A stretch of 64,000 nt of DNA from an uncultured Alphaproteobacteria bacterium (GCA_902512325.1 CABXIT010000002.1:5009-69008), one strand, 5' to 3'. Positions 33,114 to 51,183 are shown, counted from the first letter of the stretch. The notes: generated from the letters alone by a model not told the origin. Program-made: numbers and translations.

Positions 33114-34581
33114 TTTAATTAAGGGAAAAGAACAAGAATGGGAAACTGTAATAGGTCTTGAAATACATGCTCAAGTAAAATCAAATTCAAAATTATTTAG
33201 CAGTTCCTCTTCAACTTTTGGCTCGAAACCAAATAGTCAAGTCTCTTTAGTTGATGCTGCTATGCCAGGTATGCTCCCAGTAATTAATAAATACTGTATC
33301 GAACAAGCAATAAAAACTGGAATAGGGTTAAATGCAAAAATAAATAATTATTCTGTTTTCGATCGAAAAAATTACTTTTATGCTGATCTTCCTCAGGGCT
33401 ATCAAATTAGTCAATACAAACATCCTATTGTGGGGGAGGGGAAAGTCACTATTGATTTCAAAGATGGTAGTTCAAAAGATATCAGAATAGTGAGGCTTCA
33501 CTTAGAGCAAGATGCGGGCAAAAGTATTCATGATCAAAATCCAACAAAAACATATGTTGATTTAAATAGGTCAGGAGTTGCTTTAATGGAAATTGTAAGT
33601 GAGCCAGATATCAGAAGCGCAGATGAAGCAGGTTTGTATATTTCAAAAATAAGATCAATTTTGATGTATCTTGATACTTGTGATGGAAACATGCAAGAAG
33701 GGTCTCTACGTGCTGATGTAAATATTTCAGTGAGAAAACTTGACGATAAATATGGGACCAGGTGTGAGATTAAAAATTTAAATTCCATTAAATTTATTAA
33801 ACAGGCAATTAATTATGAAGTAAAAAGACAGATTGAAGTTCTTGAGGAAGGGGGTGTTATTGAGCAAAACACGCTCTTGTTTAATACATCTACAGGCAAA
33901 ACAAGACCCATGAGAAGTAAAGAAGAGGCACATGATTACAGATATTTTCCAGATCCTGATTTATTGCCTTTAGAAATAGATCAAGAAGATATTGATAAAT
34001 TAAAAAAAACGATCACAGAATTACCAGATGATAGAAAAAAAAGATATGTAGATGATTACAATTTATCTAACTATGATGCATCAGTTTTAACTGCAGATAA
34101 ATTTGTATCTGATTATTTCGACAATGTAATTAAATTTGATAAAACACTTAAAAAGTCTTCAAAGATTGTTGTAAATTGGATTACATCAGAATTATTTTCA
34201 CTTTTAAACGAAAATAATATTGAAATTAATAATTCTCCAATAACTCCTCAGTATTTAGGTAAGTTAGTAAAATTATTAAAAGAGGATATAATCTCAGGTA
34301 AGATTGCTAAAGATGTTTTAGTTGAAATGTTTAATACAAAAAAAGATCCAGAAAAAATTATAGAACAAAAAGGATTAAAGCAGGTTACTGACACAAGTGA
34401 AATTGAAAATATTGTCAATGAAGTTCTTCAAGAAAATCAAAAAATGGTTGATCAATATTTATCAGGTAAAGATAAACTACTTGGGTTTTTTGTTGGACAA
34501 ACTATGAAAAAAAGTAAAGGAAAAGCTAATCCTAAAATTTTAAATGAAATTTTACAATCCAAGTTATCCAAGAAAAATTAA
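33106..34581 (+). CDS. gatB: Asp/Glu-tRNA(Asn/Gln) amidotransferase subunit B
   Basis: 491 aa with WETVIGLEIHAQ, DRKNYFYADLPQGYQISQ and a C-terminal YqeY-like tail. Confidence 0.95.
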   Translation: MSNLIKGKEQEWETVIGLEIHAQVKSNSKLFSSSSSTFGSKPNSQVSLVDAAMPGMLPVINKYCIEQAIKTGIGLNAKINNYSVFDRKNYFYADLPQGYQISQYKHPIVGEGKVTIDFKDGSSKDIRIVRLHLEQDAGKSIHDQNPTKTYVDLNRSGVALMEIVSEPDIRSADEAGLYISKIRSILMYLDTCDGNMQEGSLRADVNISVRKLDDKYGTRCEIKNLNSIKFIKQAINYEVKRQIEVLEEGGVIEQNTLLFNTSTGKTRPMRSKEEAHDYRYFPDPDLLPLEIDQEDIDKLKKTITELPDDRKKRYVDDYNLSNYDASVLTADKFVSDYFDNVIKFDKTLKKSSKIVVNWITSELFSLLNENNIEINNSPITPQYLGKLVKLLKEDIISGKIAKDVLVEMFNTKKDPEKIIEQKGLKQVTDTSEIENIVNEVLQENQKMVDQYLSGKDKLLGFFVGQTMKKSKGKANPKILNEILQSKLSKKN

Positions 34582-34902
34582 ACGAAGTGTAAAAATTCTA
34601 TATGATAAGAATAAAAAAGTTGCAACTACCCATATTATGCTTCCATTATAATTTTCTGCTGATCTCCAAATTCCCACAGTAATTAGAATTGTCCAAAAAA
34701 TTAATAAAAGTTTAGTAAATAATGTAAAATTGCTAAAATCTAAAAAAGGTAAATAGCTTGTAAATTGATTATTACCAAATGCATAAATCTCGAGATTAAA
34801 AATTACTAATGTAAATAAGGCATTTAATAATTCACCAACTAACCAATAAGATCTCCATAGAGTGATTTCCCCTCTCCAAAATCTGCTAATTATTTTTTTC
34901 AT
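34564..34902 (-). CDS. small hypothetical membrane protein (about 3 TM)
   Basis: A 112-aa hydrophobic ORF that converges on gatB with an 18-nt overlap. No recognisable motif. It is the last gene before the tRNA-Ser half-repeat. Confidence 0.45.
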   Translation of the reverse strand: MKKIISRFWRGEITLWRSYWLVGELLNALFTLVIFNLEIYAFGNNQFTSYLPFLDFSNFTLFTKLLLIFWTILITVGIWRSAENYNGSIIWVVATFLFLSYRIFTLRLIFLG

Positions 34903-35014
34903 ATTTTATTTCTTTTAAATTATTACATTAATAAAATCCTCAACTTAATTTAAATATTAATGAATATAGTTGAGTTTCTAGTTACATTTCATTAATAAGG
35001 ATATATGAATCATA

Positions 35015-35061
35015 TACAGGAGAGATGGGTGAGTGGCTTAAACCACAGGTTTGCTAAACCT
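35015..35061 (+). repeat. left direct repeat: orphan 5' half of tRNA-Ser(GCU) (4 upstream nt + tRNA nt 1-43)
   Basis: tacaggagagatgggtgagtggcttaaaccacaggtttgctaaacct is identical (47/47) to 37776-37822. Identity stops exactly at the 3' end of the anticodon stem. Confidence 0.95.
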
Positions 35062-35361
35062 TTGAATTTTGTACTTTCTTGTTAAATATTTCTCAGTAAT
35101 CCAACAAAAACATTTCCAATAACATCATTTCACGGCAACTGTGGACCACGTACGTATCACTTTGCTCTCAAAACTAGTATGAGGACACTAAGGAATTCGA
35201 AGCAACGAATTTGGGTCCCTTGTGCCCTCTATTTCCCTATAAAGATATTAAAAGAAATACCAAACGATTATGTAAATTAATCCAACTCACCAATTAAACT
35301 ACCCTTTCCCCTCGTTATTTTCCCTCTTAATCCCGTATCGGTATTGTGTTAGGTTATCGTG

Positions 35362-35865
35362 ATGAATAGAAAAGGTTTCTCTCTTATCGAACTCTTAGTT
35401 GTTGTTGCGATCATTGGTATCTTAGCAGCAGTAGGGATTGTAGCATATAGCGGGTATACAAATAGTGCTAAAGTTAATGCTGTGAAGGCAAATCATAAAC
35501 TTGCAGTAAAAATAATCAACCAAGAATTAATGCGTTGTCAGTTAGAGGATAAAATACAAATGTATAATGGGTCAACAAAAAAATGTGAAGATTCACCTTG
35601 TCAATGGTCACCTCACCCTTTTAGTTATAATTTTTATAAAATAAGTAGTTGTTTGGACAGCGGTGATACTTTTAAAAATAATCCTTTTAATAATGCAGAT
35701 CCTAATGGAGGATACCGCGCAACTTCAACAATACCAACTGTAGCTGAAATAGGAAGAACCCATTGCAATTTTGATAGTCTAAAAAATCCAGTAGTAATAT
35801 GTAGTTCTCGTTGGGGAACAGGAACTAATGATTATGAACTGACAAATATTTCAGATCCTTTTTAA
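35362..35865 (+). CDS. type IV pilin (prepilin with class III signal peptide), paralogue 1
   Basis: MNRKG|FSLIELLVVVAIIGILAAVGIVAYSGYT has a short basic leader ending in Gly, Phe+1 and Glu+5, and a hydrophobic alpha1-N helix. The Cys-containing variable C-terminus is similar to paralogue 3. An ATG at 35362 follows the track's GTG at 35359. Confidence 0.88.
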   Translation: MNRKGFSLIELLVVVAIIGILAAVGIVAYSGYTNSAKVNAVKANHKLAVKIINQELMRCQLEDKIQMYNGSTKKCEDSPCQWSPHPFSYNFYKISSCLDSGDTFKNNPFNNADPNGGYRATSTIPTVAEIGRTHCNFDSLKNPVVICSSRWGTGTNDYELTNISDPF

Positions 35866-35871
35866 ATAACA

Positions 35872-35922
35872 ATGAAAAAAGCTTTCTCTATTATTGAATT
35901 AAATGTTATAAATTGGTTATGA
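35872..35922 (+). pseudogene. truncated pilin 5' remnant (MKKAFSIIELNVINWL*)
   Basis: The first 29 nt (atgaaaaaagctttctctattattgaatt) match the pilin-2 start at 26/29 positions. The Gly(-1) is replaced by Ala and the frame stops after 16 codons. Confidence 0.6.
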
Positions 35923-36338
35923 TTGAAAATTTTGGTAATATTTTTTATCTGATCATTCACGTTTTAATTACTGGATTGTTTGGAGTTTATATTGTGAGAA
36001 TATATTTTGCTCCTGAAGGTCTAGTAAAAGAATTTAACATAGACAGGAGTGGTATCTATCTTATCAGGTTTATCGGAACCTTTGCATTTGGTTTCTTCTT
36101 AATGGGAATTTATATTATCTTTAGATCAGGCGGTCCTGAAGGAGCATGGATGTATTATAACTTGATTTTTATTATTGCAGCATCTCAACTTTTATATGAA
36201 TCTTTATTTTATTTTAAGTTAATAGATAAGGATCTCGAAGCTAAAAATAGCTTAACTGATCTAGTCCTTTCAGTGTTCATGGTTGTGGCACCGGCAATAC
36301 TTATATGGGGATTATCAGATAGAATTTATACAATATAA
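35919..36338 (+). CDS. hypothetical 4-TM membrane protein inside pilin islet
   Basis: About 139 aa from the ATG at 35919 (track TTG at 35913) with four hydrophobic helices. No recognisable motif. Confidence 0.5.
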   Translation: MIENFGNIFYLIIHVLITGLFGVYIVRIYFAPEGLVKEFNIDRSGIYLIRFIGTFAFGFFLMGIYIIFRSGGPEGAWMYYNLIFIIAASQLLYESLFYFKLIDKDLEAKNSLTDLVLSVFMVVAPAILIWGLSDRIYTI

Positions 36339-36377
36339 AAGATCCATATTAAAACTATCTCAAGATTATCAATATTA

Positions 36378-36545
36378 GTGGTGCAAATCTGTAATACTTG
36401 CTAACATTTTTTTTTAACAAATATTTGTTTTGGGTGTATCTTATTCCAATGAAAAAAGGTTTCTCTCTTATTGAACTCTTAGTCGTTGTTGCGATCATTG
36501 GTATTTTAGCAGCAGTGGGAATTGTTGCGTATAGTGGGTATACCG
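36378..36545 (+). repeat. pilin cassette repeat copy A (71-nt upstream region + first ~96 nt of pilin 2)
   Basis: gtggtgcaaatctgtaatacttgctaaca-T9-aacaaatatt... aligns with 36973-37140 with only a few substitutions. Confidence 0.9.
36398..36427 (+). promoter_or_regulatory. candidate promoter of pilin 2 (TTGCTA-N18-TATTTG) with T9 tract in spacer
   Basis: The hexamers are read directly and the T9 tract lies at 36407-36415. Its conservation in copy B is the main support. Confidence 0.3.
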
Positions 36546-36970
36546 AGAGCGCTAAGATTAATGCTGCTAAAGCAAATCACAAAGTAGTTGTTAATTTTGT
36601 AGCAACAAGTTTGGCAAAATGTGACACAGGCCAACAATTAATTTTAAAACAAAATCCTACTACAAATACTGGGGACTTGTGTTCTCTAGTTATATCTGGA
36701 AACGTTAATCAATTAGCTACTAACTTTGTTGGTCATTTTAGAAGTCTAAAGTGGTGTAATCCTTTTGGCTGGAGAGGAGGGAGCGTTTGTGCTGAAGCAG
36801 TAGAAGCGGGAGGCACAGTGGGAGAGGGAACTGTAGGTGCAACAAAAATAATTACTAAATCAGGTTCTAAAACTTTATATATTGATACAAAATATACGTG
36901 TGGAAGCAGTGGTCAGACAGAGCTTTGCAGAACAGGAGAAACCCTAACAGATTTTATGGAAGTAAAATAA
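36449..36970 (+). CDS. type IV pilin, paralogue 2
   Basis: Begins MKKG|FSLIELLVVVAIIGILAAVGIVAYSGYT. The divergent C-terminus has a terminal Cys pair (YTCGSSGQTELC), which is disulfide-loop-like. The track ORF start at 36398 reads through the duplicated non-coding leader and was trimmed. Confidence 0.88.
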   Translation: MKKGFSLIELLVVVAIIGILAAVGIVAYSGYTESAKINAAKANHKVVVNFVATSLAKCDTGQQLILKQNPTTNTGDLCSLVISGNVNQLATNFVGHFRSLKWCNPFGWRGGSVCAEAVEAGGTVGEGTVGATKIITKSGSKTLYIDTKYTCGSSGQTELCRTGETLTDFMEVK

Positions 36971-36972
36971 TT

Positions 36973-37140
36973 GTGGTGCAAATCTGTAACACTTGCTAAC
37001 ATTTTTTTTTAACAAATATTAATTTTGGGTGTATCTTATTTAAATGAAAAAAGGTTTCTCTCTTATCGAACTCTTAGTCGTAGTTGCAATTATAGGTATT
37101 TTAGCAGCAGTAGGAATTGTTGCGTATAGTGGGTATACGA
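36973..37140 (+). repeat. pilin cassette repeat copy B (71-nt upstream region + first ~96 nt of pilin 3)
   Basis: See copy A. It begins 2 nt after the pilin 2 stop codon. Confidence 0.9.
36993..37022 (+). promoter_or_regulatory. candidate promoter of pilin 3 (TTGCTA-N18-TATTAA) with T9 tract in spacer
   Basis: Same architecture as copy A, with the T9 tract at 37002-37010. Confidence 0.3.
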
Positions 37141-37541
37141 GTGGTGCAAAAGTTACAGCAACAAAAGCTAATCATGCACTAGTTGCTAAAATTATTCAAG
37201 CGGAAATTATGAGATGTAGTTTTGGTGAGGAACCACAGTTATCTCAAGGTATTAATCTTAAATGTAATGAAATTAGTCAGAAAAAAATTTCAGATCCTTG
37301 GTATCTAGCAACAAAGTTTGCTCAGCATTTTACAATTATACACAATAATACAGGAGAACAACAATGGAAAAATTTATTTGACAATGGAGCAGGAGTACAA
37401 CCTACTAAGAATACACAGTGTAATCTTAATACTTTAGGTCAATCAAGTATTGCGGGGAGAAAAAATGAAATAATTGTGATTACTAGATATGGAACAGGAA
37501 ATAACGATTGCCTTATTACAGTTGTATCTAGTGAGTTTTAA
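37044..37541 (+). CDS. type IV pilin, paralogue 3
   Basis: Begins MKKG|FSLIELLVVVAIIGILAAVGIVAYSGYT. The C-terminal half parallels paralogue 1 (EIMRCSF.. vs ELMRCQL..; RYGTGNNDC vs RWGTGTNDY). Confidence 0.88.
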   Translation: MKKGFSLIELLVVVAIIGILAAVGIVAYSGYTSGAKVTATKANHALVAKIIQAEIMRCSFGEEPQLSQGINLKCNEISQKKISDPWYLATKFAQHFTIIHNNTGEQQWKNLFDNGAGVQPTKNTQCNLNTLGQSSIAGRKNEIIVITRYGTGNNDCLITVVSSEF

Positions 37542-37775
37542 ATGAAAAAACTTTTTTTTAACCTTAGTGACGAGCGAAAAAAGAATCACTAATGAGGTCA
37601 CAATCAACGAAAAATCCATGGACCTCACACGTATCAATATAGTGTATTATTTATTAATATTTCATGCTAAATAATAATTAAGAAAGTAGAGCGATTACAT
37701 TGTGTGAAGTGCAGAATGTTATTGAGATACTTGGAAATTTTAACTAAGAGGGTTAATAGTTTACGATGATAAATT

Positions 37776-37822
37776 TACAGGAGAGATGGGTGAGTGGCTT
37801 AAACCACAGGTTTGCTAAACCT
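37776..37822 (+). repeat. right direct repeat (part of the intact tRNA-Ser gene)
   Basis: Identical (47/47) to 35015-35061. Confidence 0.95.
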
Positions 37823-37871
37823 GCGAAGAGGGTAACCTCTTCCGAGGGTTCGAATCCCTCTCTCTCCGCCA
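37780..37871 (+). tRNA. tRNA-Ser (anticodon GCU), class II with long variable arm, CCA encoded
   Basis: Manual fold: acceptor GGAGAGA/TCTCTCC, anticodon stem CAGGT/ACCTG with loop TTGCTAA, variable arm GAAGAGG-GTAA-CCTCTTC, T arm GAGGG-TTCGAAT-CCCTC, discriminator G and 3' CCA. Confidence 0.95.
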
Positions 37872-37880
37872 ATAAATAAA

Positions 37881-38753
37881 ATGTTTTTTGGAAGTATACC
37901 TGCAGTAATTACGCCATTTAAAAATAAAAAAGTTGATTACAACTCATTTGAAAAAATAGTTGATCATCTTATTTTAAATGGATCGAATGGTCTAGTGCCG
38001 TGTGGAACTACAGGTGAGTCTCCGACTTTATCACATGATGAACATAAAAAAATAATTGAAGAAACAATAAGAATTAATGATCAAAGAGTTTCAGTTATTG
38101 CAGGAACTGGATCAAATAATACTGAGGAAGCTATAGAATTTACAAAACATGCAGAAAGTGTAGGTGCGGATGCAGCTTTAGTTGTAACTCCATATTATAA
38201 TAAACCTACTCAACAAGGTCTATATACGCATTTTAAAAAAATTGCAGATTGCGTAACACTTCCAATCATAATTTATAATATACCAGGAAGATCTGTAGTA
38301 GATATGTCTATTGAGACAATGATTAATCTATCTAAGATTAATAATATTGTTGGCGTTAAAGATGCCACTAATGATTTATTCAGACCTCTACTTACAGCGG
38401 CATATATGGAAAAAGAATTTTGTTATTTATCCGGTGAAGATGGAACTGCCTTAGCTTTTCTTTCTCAAGGAGGTCATGGCTGTATATCAGTAACTGCAAA
38501 TGTTGCCCCAAAGTTATGTTCAGATATGCAATTAGCTTGGAGAGAAAAAAATATTCAAAAAGCACAAAAATTAAATTTACAATTAGCAAAGCTTCATAAT
38601 GCTCTTTTTTTAGAATCTAGTCCTGGACCAGTCAAATTTGCAGCATCTTTAATAGGTTTATGTAGTAGTGAAACAAGATTGCCTCTTGTAGAAATTAATG
38701 AAAATACAAAAAAAAACGTTTCTGATATTCTAAAAAATTTATCTTTAATTTAA
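37881..38753 (+). CDS. dapA: 4-hydroxy-tetrahydrodipicolinate synthase
   Basis: 290 aa with GTTGESPTLS, YNKPTQ and YNIPGRS motifs. Confidence 0.95.
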   Translation: MFFGSIPAVITPFKNKKVDYNSFEKIVDHLILNGSNGLVPCGTTGESPTLSHDEHKKIIEETIRINDQRVSVIAGTGSNNTEEAIEFTKHAESVGADAALVVTPYYNKPTQQGLYTHFKKIADCVTLPIIIYNIPGRSVVDMSIETMINLSKINNIVGVKDATNDLFRPLLTAAYMEKEFCYLSGEDGTALAFLSQGGHGCISVTANVAPKLCSDMQLAWREKNIQKAQKLNLQLAKLHNALFLESSPGPVKFAASLIGLCSSETRLPLVEINENTKKNVSDILKNLSLI

Positions 38754-47411: not shown

Positions 47412-48524
47412 ATGAAAGATAATTATCTTAACACACAATCAAGTTTAGCAATGAAAGGTGCGGGTTATTATTCTGCAAAAACAGCAGGTGCTAAAAACGC
47501 TATAGATAAAACACAAAAAGTAATTGAGAATGCCCTAGAAACTATCCCATCAACGGAAATACTAAAATTTGCAGATTTTGGCAGTGCCGATGGCGGCACA
47601 AGTCAAGAAATGTGGAACAATATTATCAAATTAATTAGAGAGAAAGGCGACGATAGACAAATTGAAATTTTGTATACCGATTTAGCTTCAAATGATTTTT
47701 CAACTCTTTTTAAAACTATGCAAGGTATGTACAAAAATTCCCAATTTGCATTTCAAAAAAATTTTTCAAATGTCTATGTTCATGGATGTGGTACTGGTTT
47801 TCATCAACAATTAATGGCTAATAATTCATTAACATTAGGTTTTTCTGCAACAGCAATGCATTATGTTTCAGAAAGACCATGTTTAATAGAAAATCATGTT
47901 CATATGACTGGTGCAAATGAAAGTGAAAAAAAATTATTTAAAAATCAAGCACATAAAGATTGGGAAACTATTTTATTAAATAGATCAAAAGAAATGATAA
48001 ATGGAGGACGTTTTATCTGTATTAATTTTGGAATAGATGAACAGGGCAGATGTTTAGGCAATACAGGCGGTCATGTAATGTTTAATAATTTTGCTAAGAA
48101 TTGGAAATATCTTGAAAATCAGGGATTAATCACAAATCAAGAATTTATTAATGCAACTTTCACTCAGCATTATAGGACTGTTGAGGAATTTAAGATGCCA
48201 TTTGATGATAAAGACTCAGTTGTTTCAAAATCAGGTTTAATTCTTAAATCTTGCGAAACAATGATAACAGATTGTCCTTACAAAATGCATTATCTAGCGA
48301 ATAAAGATAATATGTCTTCAGAAGAATATGCAAAAACTCTAATTCCTACAATGCGAAGTTGGTCTGAGACAGTTTTTAAAAATGCATTAATTAATAGAAC
48401 TGAAAAAGAAATTAATGAGATTGTTGATAAATTTTACGATTTATACATCGAGGAAGTATCAAATAATCCAGAAGGCCACGCCATGGACTATGTTCATGTG
48501 ATTATGGATATAGAAAAGATTTAA
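47412..48524 (+). CDS. SAM-dependent methyltransferase of the SABATH (Methyltransf_7, carboxyl methyltransferase) type
   Basis: 370 aa. MKGAGYYSAKTAGAKNAI, FADFGSADGGTS, LYTDLASNDFSTLF and GCGTGFHQQLMANNSLTLGFSATAMHYVS parallel the remembered plant SABATH blocks (MNGGxGxxSYAxNS; ADLGCSSGPNT; LNDLPGNDFNxxF; GSFYxRLFPxxSxHFxHSSYSLHWLS). Confidence 0.7.
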   Translation: MKDNYLNTQSSLAMKGAGYYSAKTAGAKNAIDKTQKVIENALETIPSTEILKFADFGSADGGTSQEMWNNIIKLIREKGDDRQIEILYTDLASNDFSTLFKTMQGMYKNSQFAFQKNFSNVYVHGCGTGFHQQLMANNSLTLGFSATAMHYVSERPCLIENHVHMTGANESEKKLFKNQAHKDWETILLNRSKEMINGGRFICINFGIDEQGRCLGNTGGHVMFNNFAKNWKYLENQGLITNQEFINATFTQHYRTVEEFKMPFDDKDSVVSKSGLILKSCETMITDCPYKMHYLANKDNMSSEEYAKTLIPTMRSWSETVFKNALINRTEKEINEIVDKFYDLYIEEVSNNPEGHAMDYVHVIMDIEKI

Positions 48525-48525
48525 T

Positions 48526-51183
48526 TTAAAAATTAAGAGAAATATCTTTGTGTGTAGAACGACAAGCAGCAACATATATAGCTTGTTCTTTTGTTAATTT
48601 TTCCTGTTGTCTAAGACCAATAGTGGTTTTAATAGAATTATCAAATTTAACTAACTGAGGTAATAATTCTACTTCAGCTTTTTGACGCCATTCTTTTTCT
48701 AATAAGAATATCCCATAAGCTTCATCTATAAGTTTAATTATTTTATTAATATCAGCATCATCTTTTTTTAATGCTCTTCTTGCTTTGGAAAGTTTTTCTT
48801 GAATTAAATCAGCCCCAGCTATTTCATTCAATGCCTTTTCAATAGATTTAATTTCATTCATTCCATCATCTTTTGATACATTAAATATTTTTTCTTTTAA
48901 ATTTTGAATCTCATTATTTAGGTTATTAAGTTTATCTCTATCGATAATAATATTTTTTGTTAATTGAATATTTTCATAAATTGAATCAACATTTCTTCTA
49001 TATAAAGTTATAGCCATTTTATTTTTTAAAGCTAAATCTCTGTATTGATTATTTTCATTTTCCCAGTTAGGAGGAATTTTTTCGCCAATATCTATTTTTT
49101 CTCTATTTAATTTATCTATACGAGATTTAATCTTATCAGCTTTAATTGTTTCATTATCTCTTTCTAGATATTTTTTTTCTTTTTCTAATTTTTTAACTTT
49201 AATATCTATTTTATTTATTTTTTTTTGAATTTTTCTTACAGCTTGGTGCAATGATCTATAATCTATACTATATTCATTTAAATCTAATTTAGTTAATTTA
49301 ATATCTTCTACTAATTCAAAAGTTAAAATGACATTTGTAAAAGTATTTTCTAATAATTCTTTATTTTCTGTAGGCAAATAATTAAGATTAAGAGTGGTTA
49401 AATTATCAATATTGGCTTTAATTATACTTCCATTATTTTCATATAATTCAAATTTATATTCTTGAAGACAGTCTTGTAATCTAGGATTCATCGGAGGAGG
49501 AGATACTTCCGAAGTTAAGTAAGTTCTATATGGCAAATAGTTAACTAAAGAAGGGAAATAACCAACTATTCCTAACCCAAATAGTTGAAGAACTATAAAA
49601 GCTATCGCTCCTCTCCATATTTGAATAGTGGAAACAGTCTTAGGGGCTACTCCTCTTAAATAAAATAGAGAAAATCCAAATGGTGGAGTTAAAAATGACG
49701 TTTGCATATTTACACCTATCATAACGCCTAACCAAACTGCCGTTACGTTTGCATCAGTTTGTGCAAGCAGAATAGGAGCAATGATTGGCACTACAACAAC
49801 AGCTATTTCTATAAAATCAAGGAAGAAACCAAGAATAAAAATTACCGCCATAACTACGAAGAATTGAGTCCAAAAACCTCCAGGTAAACTTGTTAAAAAT
49901 TCAGTAACTAACTCTTCCCCACCAAATCCTCTAAAAGCAGCAGTTAACATAGCTGCACCAACTAGAATAATAAATACCATGGAAGTTGTTACACATGTTT
50001 CTAAAGCTACCCCTTTTAATGTATTATCAATTATTAGAGTTCTGTAAAAACTCCAGAATACAGAAATTGTTAAAGCAAAAACTGCTAAACTGGCTAAAGT
50101 AATTCCAATAACATCATTATAACTAGTTATATCTTTGACTCTCAAATCAAAATTACTCATAAGAAAATAAATTGCCACTAAAGAAAGAACAGCAATTATT
50201 GAAGGTGTGTATGCATGTTTTTTACCTTCATAAAGTCTATATCCGCCCATCATTGTGGCTCCTACAGCTCCAATCGCTCCTGCTTGATTTACAGTTGCTA
50301 TACCTAATATAATTGATCCTAAAACAATAAAAATTAAAGTTAATGGAGGTACTAAAGATAAAAAAACTTTTTTAGTAAAATCTAAATCGTATTTACCATC
50401 ATAAGGCACTGGTGGTGCTACACTAGGTTTAATTCTTGCATAAATTAAAACGTACAACATATATAAACCCACGAGAACTAAACCAGGTAAAAATGCTCCA
50501 AGAAACATATCTCCAGCACTTGTAGAAGATACAGAATATGATCCAGGCATGCTAAACTCACCTGTAAATAATTTATATTCCGCTTGTCTAGCAGTGTTAG
50601 CAACATCTGAGGCACTTGCTAATTGATCTGCAAGTATGATTAACACTATTGAAGGGGGGATAATTTGACCTAATGTTCCCGATGAGCACACTATTCCGCT
50701 TGCAAGTGACTTATCATAATTATTTCTTAACATTGCAGGAAGGGAAATTAAGCCCATAGCAACTACAGTTGCCCCAACAATACCTGTTGTTGCAGCAAGT
50801 AAAGCTCCTACAAATATAACAGAAGTACCAAGTCCTCCGGGAATAGGACCAAAAAGTTGCCCCATTGTAACTAATAAATCTTCAGCTATTTTTGATCTTT
50901 GAAGCATGATACCCATAAAAATAAACAAAGGTATTGCTATCAAAGTGTCTCTTTCAACTTCCCAATAAACAGCTCTAAAATTAGTTATACCTGCTGATAA
51001 CCATTGTATAGGACCATCTTGATGAAAATATTCACTTGGATTATTTGCAAATAAATAGCCAGCTAAAGCAGCCATTAAAATAGTAAGAACAGCCGAACCT
51101 GGAAGAGAAAAGGCAACTGGAAAGCCTGATCCAAGTGCTATAATCATTGTTAAAATGAGAATTAATAAAAATACAGTTTCCAT
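48526..51183 (-). CDS. dctM: TRAP transporter large permease (DctM family) fused to ~330-aa coiled-coil-rich C-terminal domain
   Basis: 885 aa. Residues ~1-555 are polytopic with DctM-like blocks (GFPVAFSL..., IPLFIFMG, GTLGQIIPPS, TPPFGFSLFYL). Residues ~556-885 are hydrophilic and K/E/N/I-rich with heptad-like stretches. Confidence 0.8.
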   Translation of the reverse strand: METVFLLILILTMIIALGSGFPVAFSLPGSAVLTILMAALAGYLFANNPSEYFHQDGPIQWLSAGITNFRAVYWEVERDTLIAIPLFIFMGIMLQRSKIAEDLLVTMGQLFGPIPGGLGTSVIFVGALLAATTGIVGATVVAMGLISLPAMLRNNYDKSLASGIVCSSGTLGQIIPPSIVLIILADQLASASDVANTARQAEYKLFTGEFSMPGSYSVSSTSAGDMFLGAFLPGLVLVGLYMLYVLIYARIKPSVAPPVPYDGKYDLDFTKKVFLSLVPPLTLIFIVLGSIILGIATVNQAGAIGAVGATMMGGYRLYEGKKHAYTPSIIAVLSLVAIYFLMSNFDLRVKDITSYNDVIGITLASLAVFALTISVFWSFYRTLIIDNTLKGVALETCVTTSMVFIILVGAAMLTAAFRGFGGEELVTEFLTSLPGGFWTQFFVVMAVIFILGFFLDFIEIAVVVVPIIAPILLAQTDANVTAVWLGVMIGVNMQTSFLTPPFGFSLFYLRGVAPKTVSTIQIWRGAIAFIVLQLFGLGIVGYFPSLVNYLPYRTYLTSEVSPPPMNPRLQDCLQEYKFELYENNGSIIKANIDNLTTLNLNYLPTENKELLENTFTNVILTFELVEDIKLTKLDLNEYSIDYRSLHQAVRKIQKKINKIDIKVKKLEKEKKYLERDNETIKADKIKSRIDKLNREKIDIGEKIPPNWENENNQYRDLALKNKMAITLYRRNVDSIYENIQLTKNIIIDRDKLNNLNNEIQNLKEKIFNVSKDDGMNEIKSIEKALNEIAGADLIQEKLSKARRALKKDDADINKIIKLIDEAYGIFLLEKEWRQKAEVELLPQLVKFDNSIKTTIGLRQQEKLTKEQAIYVAACRSTHKDISLNF

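Follow-up and report, generated by a model that had tools for sequence, protein, structure and literature searches.

A small integrase-less pilin island at tRNA-Ser(GCU) in a HIMB59-like marine alphaproteobacterium, probably a mosaic of modules exchanged between genomes

How do three type IV pilin genes with nearly the same beginning and divergent ends come to stand side by side, remote from any pilus machinery? We address this question for P1, P2 and P3, which span positions 35362-37541 of a 64,000-nt stretch from an uncultured Alphaproteobacteria bacterium (GCA_902512325.1, CABXIT010000002.1:5009-69008). This whole stretch is called the window, and positions are counted from its first letter. 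Its lineage is HIMB59-like, with a gatB only ~62% identical to that of Pelagibacteraceae. An earlier note, made from the sequence alone, had described a tandem pilin array prone to recombination between the gene starts. Absent from that description were the tRNA-Ser gene and the 43-nt copy of it that flank the array, a membrane-protein open reading frame (ORF), two shortened pilin starts (stubs), a repeat upstream of P2 and P3, and the island flanked by attachment (att) sites that these features define. The explanation that we consider probable is that the array is an integrase-less 2.7-kb pilin island at tRNA-Ser(GCU), and that it is a mosaic whose modules are exchanged between genomes at the conserved 5' ends of the pilin genes, here called 5' cassettes.

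We first established what the genes encode. As the earlier note had reported, all three are complete ORFs on the + strand: P1 (35362-35865) encodes 167 amino acids (aa), P2 (36449-36970) 173 aa and P3 (37044-37541) 165 aa in a 498-nt unit. The P1 start was taken at 35362, 3 nt inside an ORF listed from a GTG codon. That of P2 was taken at 36449, within a longer TTG-initiated ORF listed from 36398; relatives begin MKKG or MNKG. Each protein opens with the leader pattern M(N)(R/K)KG and continues with FSLIELLVVVAIIGILAAVGIVAYSGYT (MNRKG followed by FSLIE in P1, MKKG followed by FSLIE in P2 and P3). Such a start is a class III signal peptide: the leader is short and basic, its last residue is Gly, and Phe and Glu follow at +1 and +5. 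Matches to Pfam N_methyl (PF07963) score 31-35 bits against a curated cut-off of 21.2 (E = 1.3e-8 for P1 and 1.3e-7 for P2 and P3). When PDB sequences were searched with phmmer, only the first 35-40 residues (2-40) aligned, with geopilin, PilE, PAK PilA and others, at E values of 4e-8 to 1e-3. These matches are major pilins of Neisseria, Pseudomonas and Geobacter, to which the hydrophobic N-terminal helix of P1-P3 (~20 residues) is homologous. AlphaFold2 models of P2 and P3, built on 57-61 homologues with predicted local distance difference test scores of 84.5 and 78.8, respectively, predict a 53-residue N-terminal helix (7-59), loop helices and four strands, a fold that would fit pilin topology. 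Judged by sequence, P1-P3 are real type IV prepilin genes and are type IVa major-pilin-like.

Residues 1 to ~32 are identical across P1, P2 and P3, and the corresponding DNA is nearly so, as the earlier note had stated. From the Gly codon (GGTTTC) onward, identity between the genes is 88-93% in the first 81 nt and 86-87% when 95 nt are counted. Nucleotide differences between the 5' cassettes are without exception synonymous, and the longest exact tracts are 20-30 nt. The kinship of P1 and P3 claimed there also holds (42% identity, E = 1e-37, with the quoted motifs ELMRCQL/EIMRCSF and RWGTGTNDY/RYGTGNNDC included). Its view of P2 as unrelated to the others has to be given up: P2 and P3 share 41% identity across 152 aa (E = 4e-29), and profiles of the P2-type and P1/P3-type families align with a probability of 100% to about residue 110, the last ~60 residues alone differing in kind. 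The C-terminal loop of P2, described there as Cys-X9-Cys, is actually Cys-X8-Cys, with C151 and C160 among the six Cys of the protein. Both are kept in at least 90% of 61 sequences, and the only invariant Cys in the P1/P3-type alignment are C58 and C74. Full-length P2-type relatives number >120 (55-99% identity), and metagenomic orthologues of P3 range from 97% down to 66% identity. The contig index returned no match when searched for the exact P1, P2 and P3 proteins, probably because gene callers had used other starts. Neither pilus machinery nor a further prepilin N-terminus was found within the window by Pfam searches of the 10 least obvious ORFs, by reading the remaining translations by eye (all judged housekeeping) or by a regular expression for prepilin starts, in agreement with the earlier note.

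The array lies between a fragment of a tRNA gene and the intact gene. The intact tRNA-Ser(GCU) (37780-37871, + strand) is the single tRNA found in the window by ARAGORN and Rfam (RF00005, 58.4 bits), and Rfam is otherwise empty there. A 43-nt copy of its 5' half forms an attL-like scar at 35018-35060 (+), 100% identical to 37779-37821. The scar starts with the nucleotide that precedes the tRNA and extends through the anticodon loop, with no 3' half behind it, and the matching attR core is the first 42 nt of the intact tRNA plus one upstream base. Between these repeats, P1 is preceded by a left non-coding arm (35061-35361, +; no Rfam match), and a right non-coding arm (37593-37778, +) leads to the tRNA. 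The last core gene on the left is orf112, a conserved small membrane ORF of 112 aa without a Pfam match (34564-34902, - strand), and the first on the right is dapA (37881-38753, +). We also considered that the 43-nt fragment might be the surviving half of a second, decayed tRNA gene, or might belong to a larger duplication, and rejected this because similarity beyond the core on either side is no better than in shuffles (p ~0.2).

An exact search for the 43-nt core, with one genome per species, returned 74 stretches, nearly all from single-amplified genomes (SAGs) labelled uncultured Alphaproteobacteria; one metagenome-assembled genome is HIMB59-LRMED-199. Loci for synteny were found by exact DNA patterns, a peptide-based search with gatB having given best matches only 55-63% identical and therefore unusable. 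The order gatB, orf112, tRNA-Ser, dapA, smpB is kept in ~70 related HIMB59-type loci where the stretches reach the flanks. In ~35 of these related loci orf112 adjoins gatB (39-83% aa identity), and across ~35 loci the distance from orf112 to tRNA-Ser runs from 113 nt to about 5.1 kb. The site is empty in six genomes (113-217 nt from orf112 to the tRNA), such relatives having a gatB 60-92% identical. Pilins occupy it in two genomes only: the window and SAG AG-319-E03 (L093 among our comparison contigs).

In empty-site genomes, the sequence upstream of the intact tRNA (110 nt) agrees with the 110 nt to the left of the window's 43-nt fragment at 89-90 of 110 positions. The 110 nt left of the window's intact tRNA match the empty-site genomes at 45-66 of 110 positions, versus 101 of 110 for L093. 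Because of these flank matches, the block carries the attL/attR signature of site-specific integration with core duplication. The left arm is absent in empty-site genomes. Three features of tRNA-integrated islands (Islander criteria, PMC4383910) are present, although an integrase gene inside the island is not: an intact tRNA with a displaced fragment as a direct repeat, an empty site in relatives and a core shared with integrase-bearing elements. Conserved flanks with differing gene content among related genomes further mark the locus as a hypervariable region. Contigs bearing these pilins are mostly <3 kb, an indirect hint of metagenomic read under-recruitment relative to the flanks. On this comparative evidence, the block 35061-37778 is an insertion of ~2.7 kb (2.76 kb for the whole block) between the tRNA-Ser fragment and the intact tRNA.

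The same core is found in phages. Three IMG/VR viral contigs without a full tRNA contain the exact 43-mer (L094 1879-1921, L095 4696-4738, L096 321-363), and these copies adjoin PF00589 tyrosine integrases (E = 1e-27 and 1e-6). The order in L094 is a MarR-like gene, the integrase and the core. In HTVC019P-type pelagiphages, the phage attachment site (attP) lies between the integrase and RNA polymerase genes, and the core of this site can correspond to a host tRNA's 5' end (bioRxiv 10.1101/410191; PMC8477408). L094, with its integrase beside the core, has this published layout. These three contigs probably stem from temperate podoviruses that infect HIMB59-type bacteria and use tRNA-Ser as their integration site. 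Another element occupies the same tRNA-Ser site in SAG AG-893-O09 (L315 6424-7591, L245 1-5853; CACNUO010000013.1). Its integrase (E = 7e-27) lies 124 nt past the 43-nt fragment, and the same contig encodes a 696-aa DUF5906/VapE-like protein upstream of the intact tRNA. In SAG AG-916-I08 (L295/L272), the 43-nt fragment and the tRNA are likewise both present.

Comparison with related contigs revealed where the modules of the array are joined. The first 145 nt of L093 correspond to the region upstream of P1 (35217-35361), and identity of 98-100% extends up to ~35400. Inside the 5' cassette of the first L093 pilin it falls to background, and an unrelated body follows, a pilin body of 189 aa. In P2 of L093, the 5' cassette is 83-93% identical to that of the window, and identity then rises to 98-100% through the body, the next upstream repeat and the stub, up to ~37700. 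Past this point it drops to 72-85% in the tRNA flank and dapA; over 37551-37779 as a whole it is 96%. P3 is missing from L093, with a clean junction at a 14-nt direct repeat, TTTAAATGAAAAAA, whose copies at 37039-37052 and 37537-37550 bracket the 498-nt P3 unit in the window. A second contig, L217, is 98-100% identical over 35462-36390, which runs from the end of the P1 cassette through the P1 body, a stub and the membrane ORF to the start of the P2 cassette. Its P1 orthologue differs at 1 of 167 residues, both of its 5' cassettes are 83-93% identical and its P2 body only 58-77%. In L219, the module of stub and membrane ORF (92% nt identity) lies behind a different pilin, and a sulfotransferase gene stands between pilins. 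Contigs with an 83% P3 orthologue carry the same last cassette behind at least three different cassettes (L082-L091).

We then compared synonymous divergence (dS) between 5' cassettes and bodies by the Nei-Gojobori method, also used for the ratio of nonsynonymous to synonymous divergence (dN/dS), taking codons 1-34 as the 5' cassette and the rest of the gene as the body. For P2 in the window and L093, dS was 0.99 in the cassette and 0.021 in the body. For P1 in the window and L217, the values were 0.77 and 0.079, and for P3 in the window and L082, 1.21 and 0.285. The whole dapA gene gave a dS of 1.10 between the window and L093. Our summary of the between-genome pairs places body dS 10- to 50-fold below the dS of the body's own 5' cassette. 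The low dS of the bodies, set against the high dS of their own cassettes and of dapA, indicates that modules have been exchanged with junctions inside the conserved 5' cassette and that the bodies are recent imports joined to older 5' cassettes. Together with the L093 and L217 comparisons, in which copy number is not invariant, these data support cassette gain, loss and chimera formation between genomes, much as the earlier note had anticipated for a variable locus recombining at its 5' cassettes.

We propose that site-specific recombination of the tyrosine-integrase type put the island into the 5' half of tRNA-Ser(GCU). In this HIMB59/AEGEAN-169-like order, the position would serve as the attachment site of temperate podovirus-like phages and of another integrative element. 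Its cargo consists of three type IVa major-pilin-like genes of full length, together with a gene for a small membrane protein. A module would begin where one pilin 5' cassette ends, take in the body and the DNA downstream of it, and reach to the following 5' cassette, and homologous recombination between genomes would exchange such modules. The ~100-nt segment for the leader and N-terminal helix, conserved because of protein function, would act as a portable homology patch. Cassettes could in this way be gained, lost and recombined to chimeras across population and species. An integrase acting in trans would have made the insertion; mobility in trans is something we infer, since no mobility gene lies in the island and none was found in any host pilin locus. 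Turnover may be favoured because it alters the pilus surface that phages, grazers or partners meet.

The array has further parts beside the pilins. The earlier note was right that three pilins stand in a row and mistaken in calling the array strictly tandem, since the row is interrupted by the membrane ORF and two stubs. Stub 1 (35872-35922, +) is a shortened pilin 5' cassette of 16 codons (MKKAFSIIELNVINWL and a stop) that begins six bases past the P1 stop. Its own stop is overlapped by the ATG of the four-helix membrane ORF (35919-36338, +; 139 aa), and it accompanies that ORF in L217 and L219. Stub 2 (37542-37592, +), a 16-codon pilin-start remnant at the array end (MKKLFFNLSDERKKNH and a stop), directly follows P3 in the window; in L093, the identical sequence lies directly behind P2. 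The membrane ORF belongs to an orphan family, for which a search of 1.84 billion proteins gave 85 representative relatives at E<=1e-3. Pfam gave a sub-threshold SLAC1 match only, and no similarity to a named accessory protein was detected. Its orthologues are 99% identical at the aa level in L217 and 88% in L219. This ORF was found with pilin cassettes in three different contexts, and an accessory role for pilins would be a guess.

A promoter-like repeat unit precedes P2 (36371-36448, +) and P3 (36966-37043, +, overlapping the final 5 nt of P2), the two copies being ~90% identical. This ~78-nt repeat is kept at 81-90% upstream of pilins in L092, L216, L218 and L219; L092 comes from MarineAlpha5, which has been grouped with HIMB59 (PMC8879329). 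Within the P2 copy, TTAACA-17-TATCTT at 36414-36442 is a sigma-70 consensus match only. Promoter calls are weak here because the sigma-70 scan (26 matches) barely exceeded shuffled expectation (16.9 +/- 4.1). A sigma-54 promoter suspected by eye in the P2/P3 repeat was dropped for its misfitting GG/GC spacing, and the scan for terminator-like sites found none.

Such pilin arrays are common in SAR11-like genomes. A degenerate DNA pattern for AAVG[IV]VAY[SN]GYT matched at least 119 stretches, nearly all from Pelagibacteraceae genomes. Among the listed matches, several loci hold runs of 2-8 or more pilins ~500 nt apart, and arrays usually mix pilin classes. With a broader motif, L197 has 13 pilin starts in 8 kb. 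Four Pelagibacteraceae loci (L113, L102, L171 and L206) have 6-9 pilin starts each, which is striking for ~1.3 Mb genomes. Clustering could not define the pilin classes, because single linkage of C-terminal domains placed 182 of 287 pilins in one group.

At least six loci have pilins and next to nothing else between a tRNA gene (Leu-UAA, Leu-GAG, Thr-UGU or Ser-UGA) and a 39-56-nt partial copy of it. In L082, the 3' part of tRNA-Leu(GAG), present twice, and the inverted middle part of tRNA-Thr(UGU) lie between or around three pilins (65-92, 793-841 and 2074-2114), and the same holds for L083-L090. No full tRNA was found on contigs L082-L090, and the fragments suggest repeated integration events.

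Two side observations concern these arrays. A ~90-nt repeat with a tRNA-3'-half-like end (GGAGGTTAGGAGTTCGACTCTTCTCGGGCGCGCCA) occurs at L092 3128-3190, L216 1288-1377, L219 863-964 and 1981-2068, and L218 1-29. It lies upstream of pilin cassettes and also on both sides of a sulfotransferase gene, and is absent from the window. Neither ARAGORN nor Rfam called it (Rfam was empty on L092), and it could represent either a mobile repeat or a further att scar. At tRNA-Leu(UAA), L126 encodes a 503-aa multi-pass membrane protein without a Pfam match (663-2174) in an att-bracketed island with three pilins, a candidate pilin-modifying enzyme.

Several observations weigh against an integrase-less island with exchanged modules at tRNA-Ser. 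No integrase, excisionase or other mobility gene lies in 35061-37778, where the ORF list holds only the pilins and the 139-aa ORF, and tblastn with two phage integrases found no match in any host pilin locus. Because it contains no integrase gene, the island is at best non-autonomous or decayed. The P1-membrane ORF-P2 block occurs in L217 (2.9 kb) between unrelated outer flanks, the right one a large opposite-strand ORF, without tRNA-Ser; the block is thus not tied to the tRNA-Ser att site. Comparison contigs from the window's own lineage number only three or four. When both AlphaFold2 models were compared with the PDB by Foldseek, no neighbour was significant, the best for P2 being PAK pilin 1oqw (E = 0.65, template modelling score 0.26-0.29). 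Pairwise dN/dS of orthologous bodies is <1 (0.04-0.32; 0.16 for P2 versus L217) and gives no direct sign of diversifying selection, contrary to what the earlier note had proposed. We infer expression, processing and assembly of P1-P3 on the assumption that pilus machinery is encoded outside the window.

A wider version of the island explanation, which we regard as possible though doubtful, is that SAR11/HIMB59-type pilin cassettes are non-autonomous att-flanked modules moved between tRNA sites and species by temperate pelagiphage integrases in trans. Pilin modules would then possibly be co-excised and transduced with pelagiphages. This would explain a body dS of 0.02 between genomes with a core dS of ~1.1, the pilin-only islands bracketed by tRNA fragments at at least five tRNAs, the tRNA fragments between pilins, and the pilin genes on T7-like phage contigs. 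Such genes, of the same family as in the host arrays, encode 156-170 aa with GFTLIELLVVVAIIGILAAVGTVAY on low-GC contigs (L222-L231, for example L225 3442-3972), and L225 also carries a T7-type RNA polymerase and a Gp2.5-like single-stranded DNA-binding protein. The phage pilins are 32-46% identical to any compared host pilin, and no integrase or tRNA-matching core was found beside them in the stretches examined. A stricter pilin DNA pattern had no match in viral contigs, since the phage copies have Thr where the pattern needs Ile or Val; a peptide-based scan did find them. If pelagiphage integrases do act in this way, viruses that may use the pilus also shuffle the genes of its subunits.

Alternatively, P1-P3 could be a fixed set of distinct subunits (major with accessory or minor pilins, or subunits of alternative pili), and the differences between genomes ordinary variation in gene content. 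We think this unlikely. The pilin classes are indeed old and conserved: P2-type sequences form >120 clusters at 55-99% identity, their dN/dS against L217 is low as given above, the P1/P3 type is widespread, and Pelagibacteraceae arrays usually combine different classes. Co-polymerising tandem major pilins are known in Streptococcus sanguinis. However, composition at the same locus differs among close relatives, contigs L082-L091 have different cassettes upstream of one and the same last cassette, and most genomes of the order have no pilin at the tRNA-Ser site. Moreover, the identity of the first 32 residues in all three proteins is unlike typical minor pilins such as FimU, PilV, PilW and PilX.

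The earlier note had likened the locus to pilE/pilS, and programmed switching within one clone, by intragenomic gene conversion or unequal crossing-over between 5' cassettes, is a second alternative. The three direct repeats of ~100 nt (170-220 nt for P2/P3), with their exact tracts of 20-30 nt, would suit such a process. In addition, the paralogous cassettes within the window (dS 0.43-0.69) are somewhat closer than orthologous ones between genomes (0.77-1.21), a comparison based on only ~25 synonymous sites. However, about a third of synonymous sites differ between the window's cassettes (proportion of synonymous differences, pS, 0.33-0.45), which argues against recent homogenisation. None of the three genes lacks a start codon, a leader or a full body, and promoter-like units lie upstream of P2 and P3. 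Start-less, truncated silent cassettes of the pilS type are missing, the only shortened pieces being 5' stubs of the opposite polarity. No G-quadruplex (G4) motif (G3+N1-7 x4) occurs on either strand in 34500-38000, and no inverted repeats bracket a promoter. All variation seen lies between genomes and none within one. The pilE/pilS likeness therefore fails, and we consider programmed switching quite improbable.

Least credible of all is a decayed prophage whose pilins were morons of a temperate pelagiphage integrated at tRNA-Ser, the remainder having been deleted: both island ends carry the exact attP core found in phage contigs, T7-like phages encode pilins of the same family and PHROGs includes a phage 'pilin' moron family, but phage and host pilins are just 32-46% identical, the pilin-bearing phage stretches examined show neither integrase nor tRNA-matching core, the stricter DNA pattern found nothing in viral contigs, and no phage gene remnant or other phage DNA beyond the 43-nt core is detectable in the island or window.

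What type IV pili do in SAR11 has been called 'unclear' (PMC12789548). As a mosaic island at tRNA-Ser(GCU), this locus shows at base-pair level how pilin genes turn over, even between lineages with saturated synonymous sites in their core genes. It offers a testable route for rapid surface change in genomes known for streamlining and conserved gene order, and it ties pilin diversity physically to the integration sites of temperate phages. Should these pili act in phage reception or in DNA uptake, the locus would also matter for the dynamics between phages and hosts and for the movement of genes in the surface ocean.

Two genes elsewhere in the window also drew attention. One (48526-51183, -) encodes an 885-aa DctM-type permease of a tripartite ATP-independent periplasmic (TRAP) transporter, with an apparently charged, coiled-coil-like C-terminal extension of ~330 residues that is unusual for DctM. 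The other ORF (47412-48524) matches Methyltransf_7 (E = 8e-35), a family of S-adenosylmethionine (SAM)-dependent carboxyl methyltransferases mostly known from plants.

The island resembles several known systems in part. Like Neisseria pilE/pilS, it holds several pilin copies with conserved segments as recombination substrates, and pilin diversity is the outcome. Neisseria pilS copies lack a promoter and 5' coding region and recombine within one genome in a G4-dependent manner, whereas the window has complete copies with a common 5' end, no G4 and exchange between genomes. In Pseudomonas aeruginosa, Kus in 2004 and Giltner in 2011 reportedly described a type IVa pilin island in which pilA alleles, accompanied by tfp accessory genes, lie between pilB and tRNA-Thr. 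That pilin island is likewise a tRNA-adjacent major pilin locus in which modules of allele plus accessory gene are exchanged horizontally and the N-terminal coding region is common to the alleles. TfpX, TfpY and TfpZ accompany some of those alleles, much as the small membrane protein accompanies pilins here. In contrast, P. aeruginosa has one pilin per strain at a locus abutting pilB, and the window has three pilins (relatives up to ~13), no adjacent machinery and an att-type repeat.

Cis-mobilisable elements (CIMEs) are integrase-less derivatives of tRNA-integrated islands. With these and their parent islands, the window shares a tRNA with a displaced fragment, empty sites in relatives and an integrase-bearing element at the same site elsewhere. 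Unlike tRNA-integrated islands, the one described here has no integrase, is very small (2.7 kb) and carries almost only pilins, and it would have to be mobilised in trans. The form of the modules has a parallel in the lpl cluster of Staphylococcus aureus, where the evolutionary unit combines the 3' part of an ORF with the spacer and with the 5' part of the ORF that follows (Tsuru & Kobayashi 2008, PMC2568036). The lpl genes are a lipoprotein family of another organism, without an att-flanked island, yet there as here the near-identical unit between genomes spans one conserved 5' region to the next, not start to stop.

The closest precedent is 'Candidatus Pelagibacter ubique', in which hypervariable regions (HVRs) 1 and 4 contain pilins; HVR4, which 'is flanked by tRNA genes', holds two pilins as well as a sulfotransferase (Wilhelm et al. 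2007, PMC2217521). In both cases, streamlined marine alphaproteobacteria carry pilins in strain-variable regions, and L092 and L219 also have a sulfotransferase among their pilins. The window differs in its HIMB59-like lineage and in its site, tRNA-Ser(GCU) between gatB and dapA. In the literature searched, we found no description of such pilin arrays as att-bracketed islands and no recombination-junction positions for them. The insertion signature, phage attP match and in-gene junctions resolved in the window are unreported in PMC2217521. Pilin arrays in tRNA-linked hypervariable regions of SAR11 have thus been known since 2007, and what is new here is the base-level resolution of the insertion, the attP core and the junctions.

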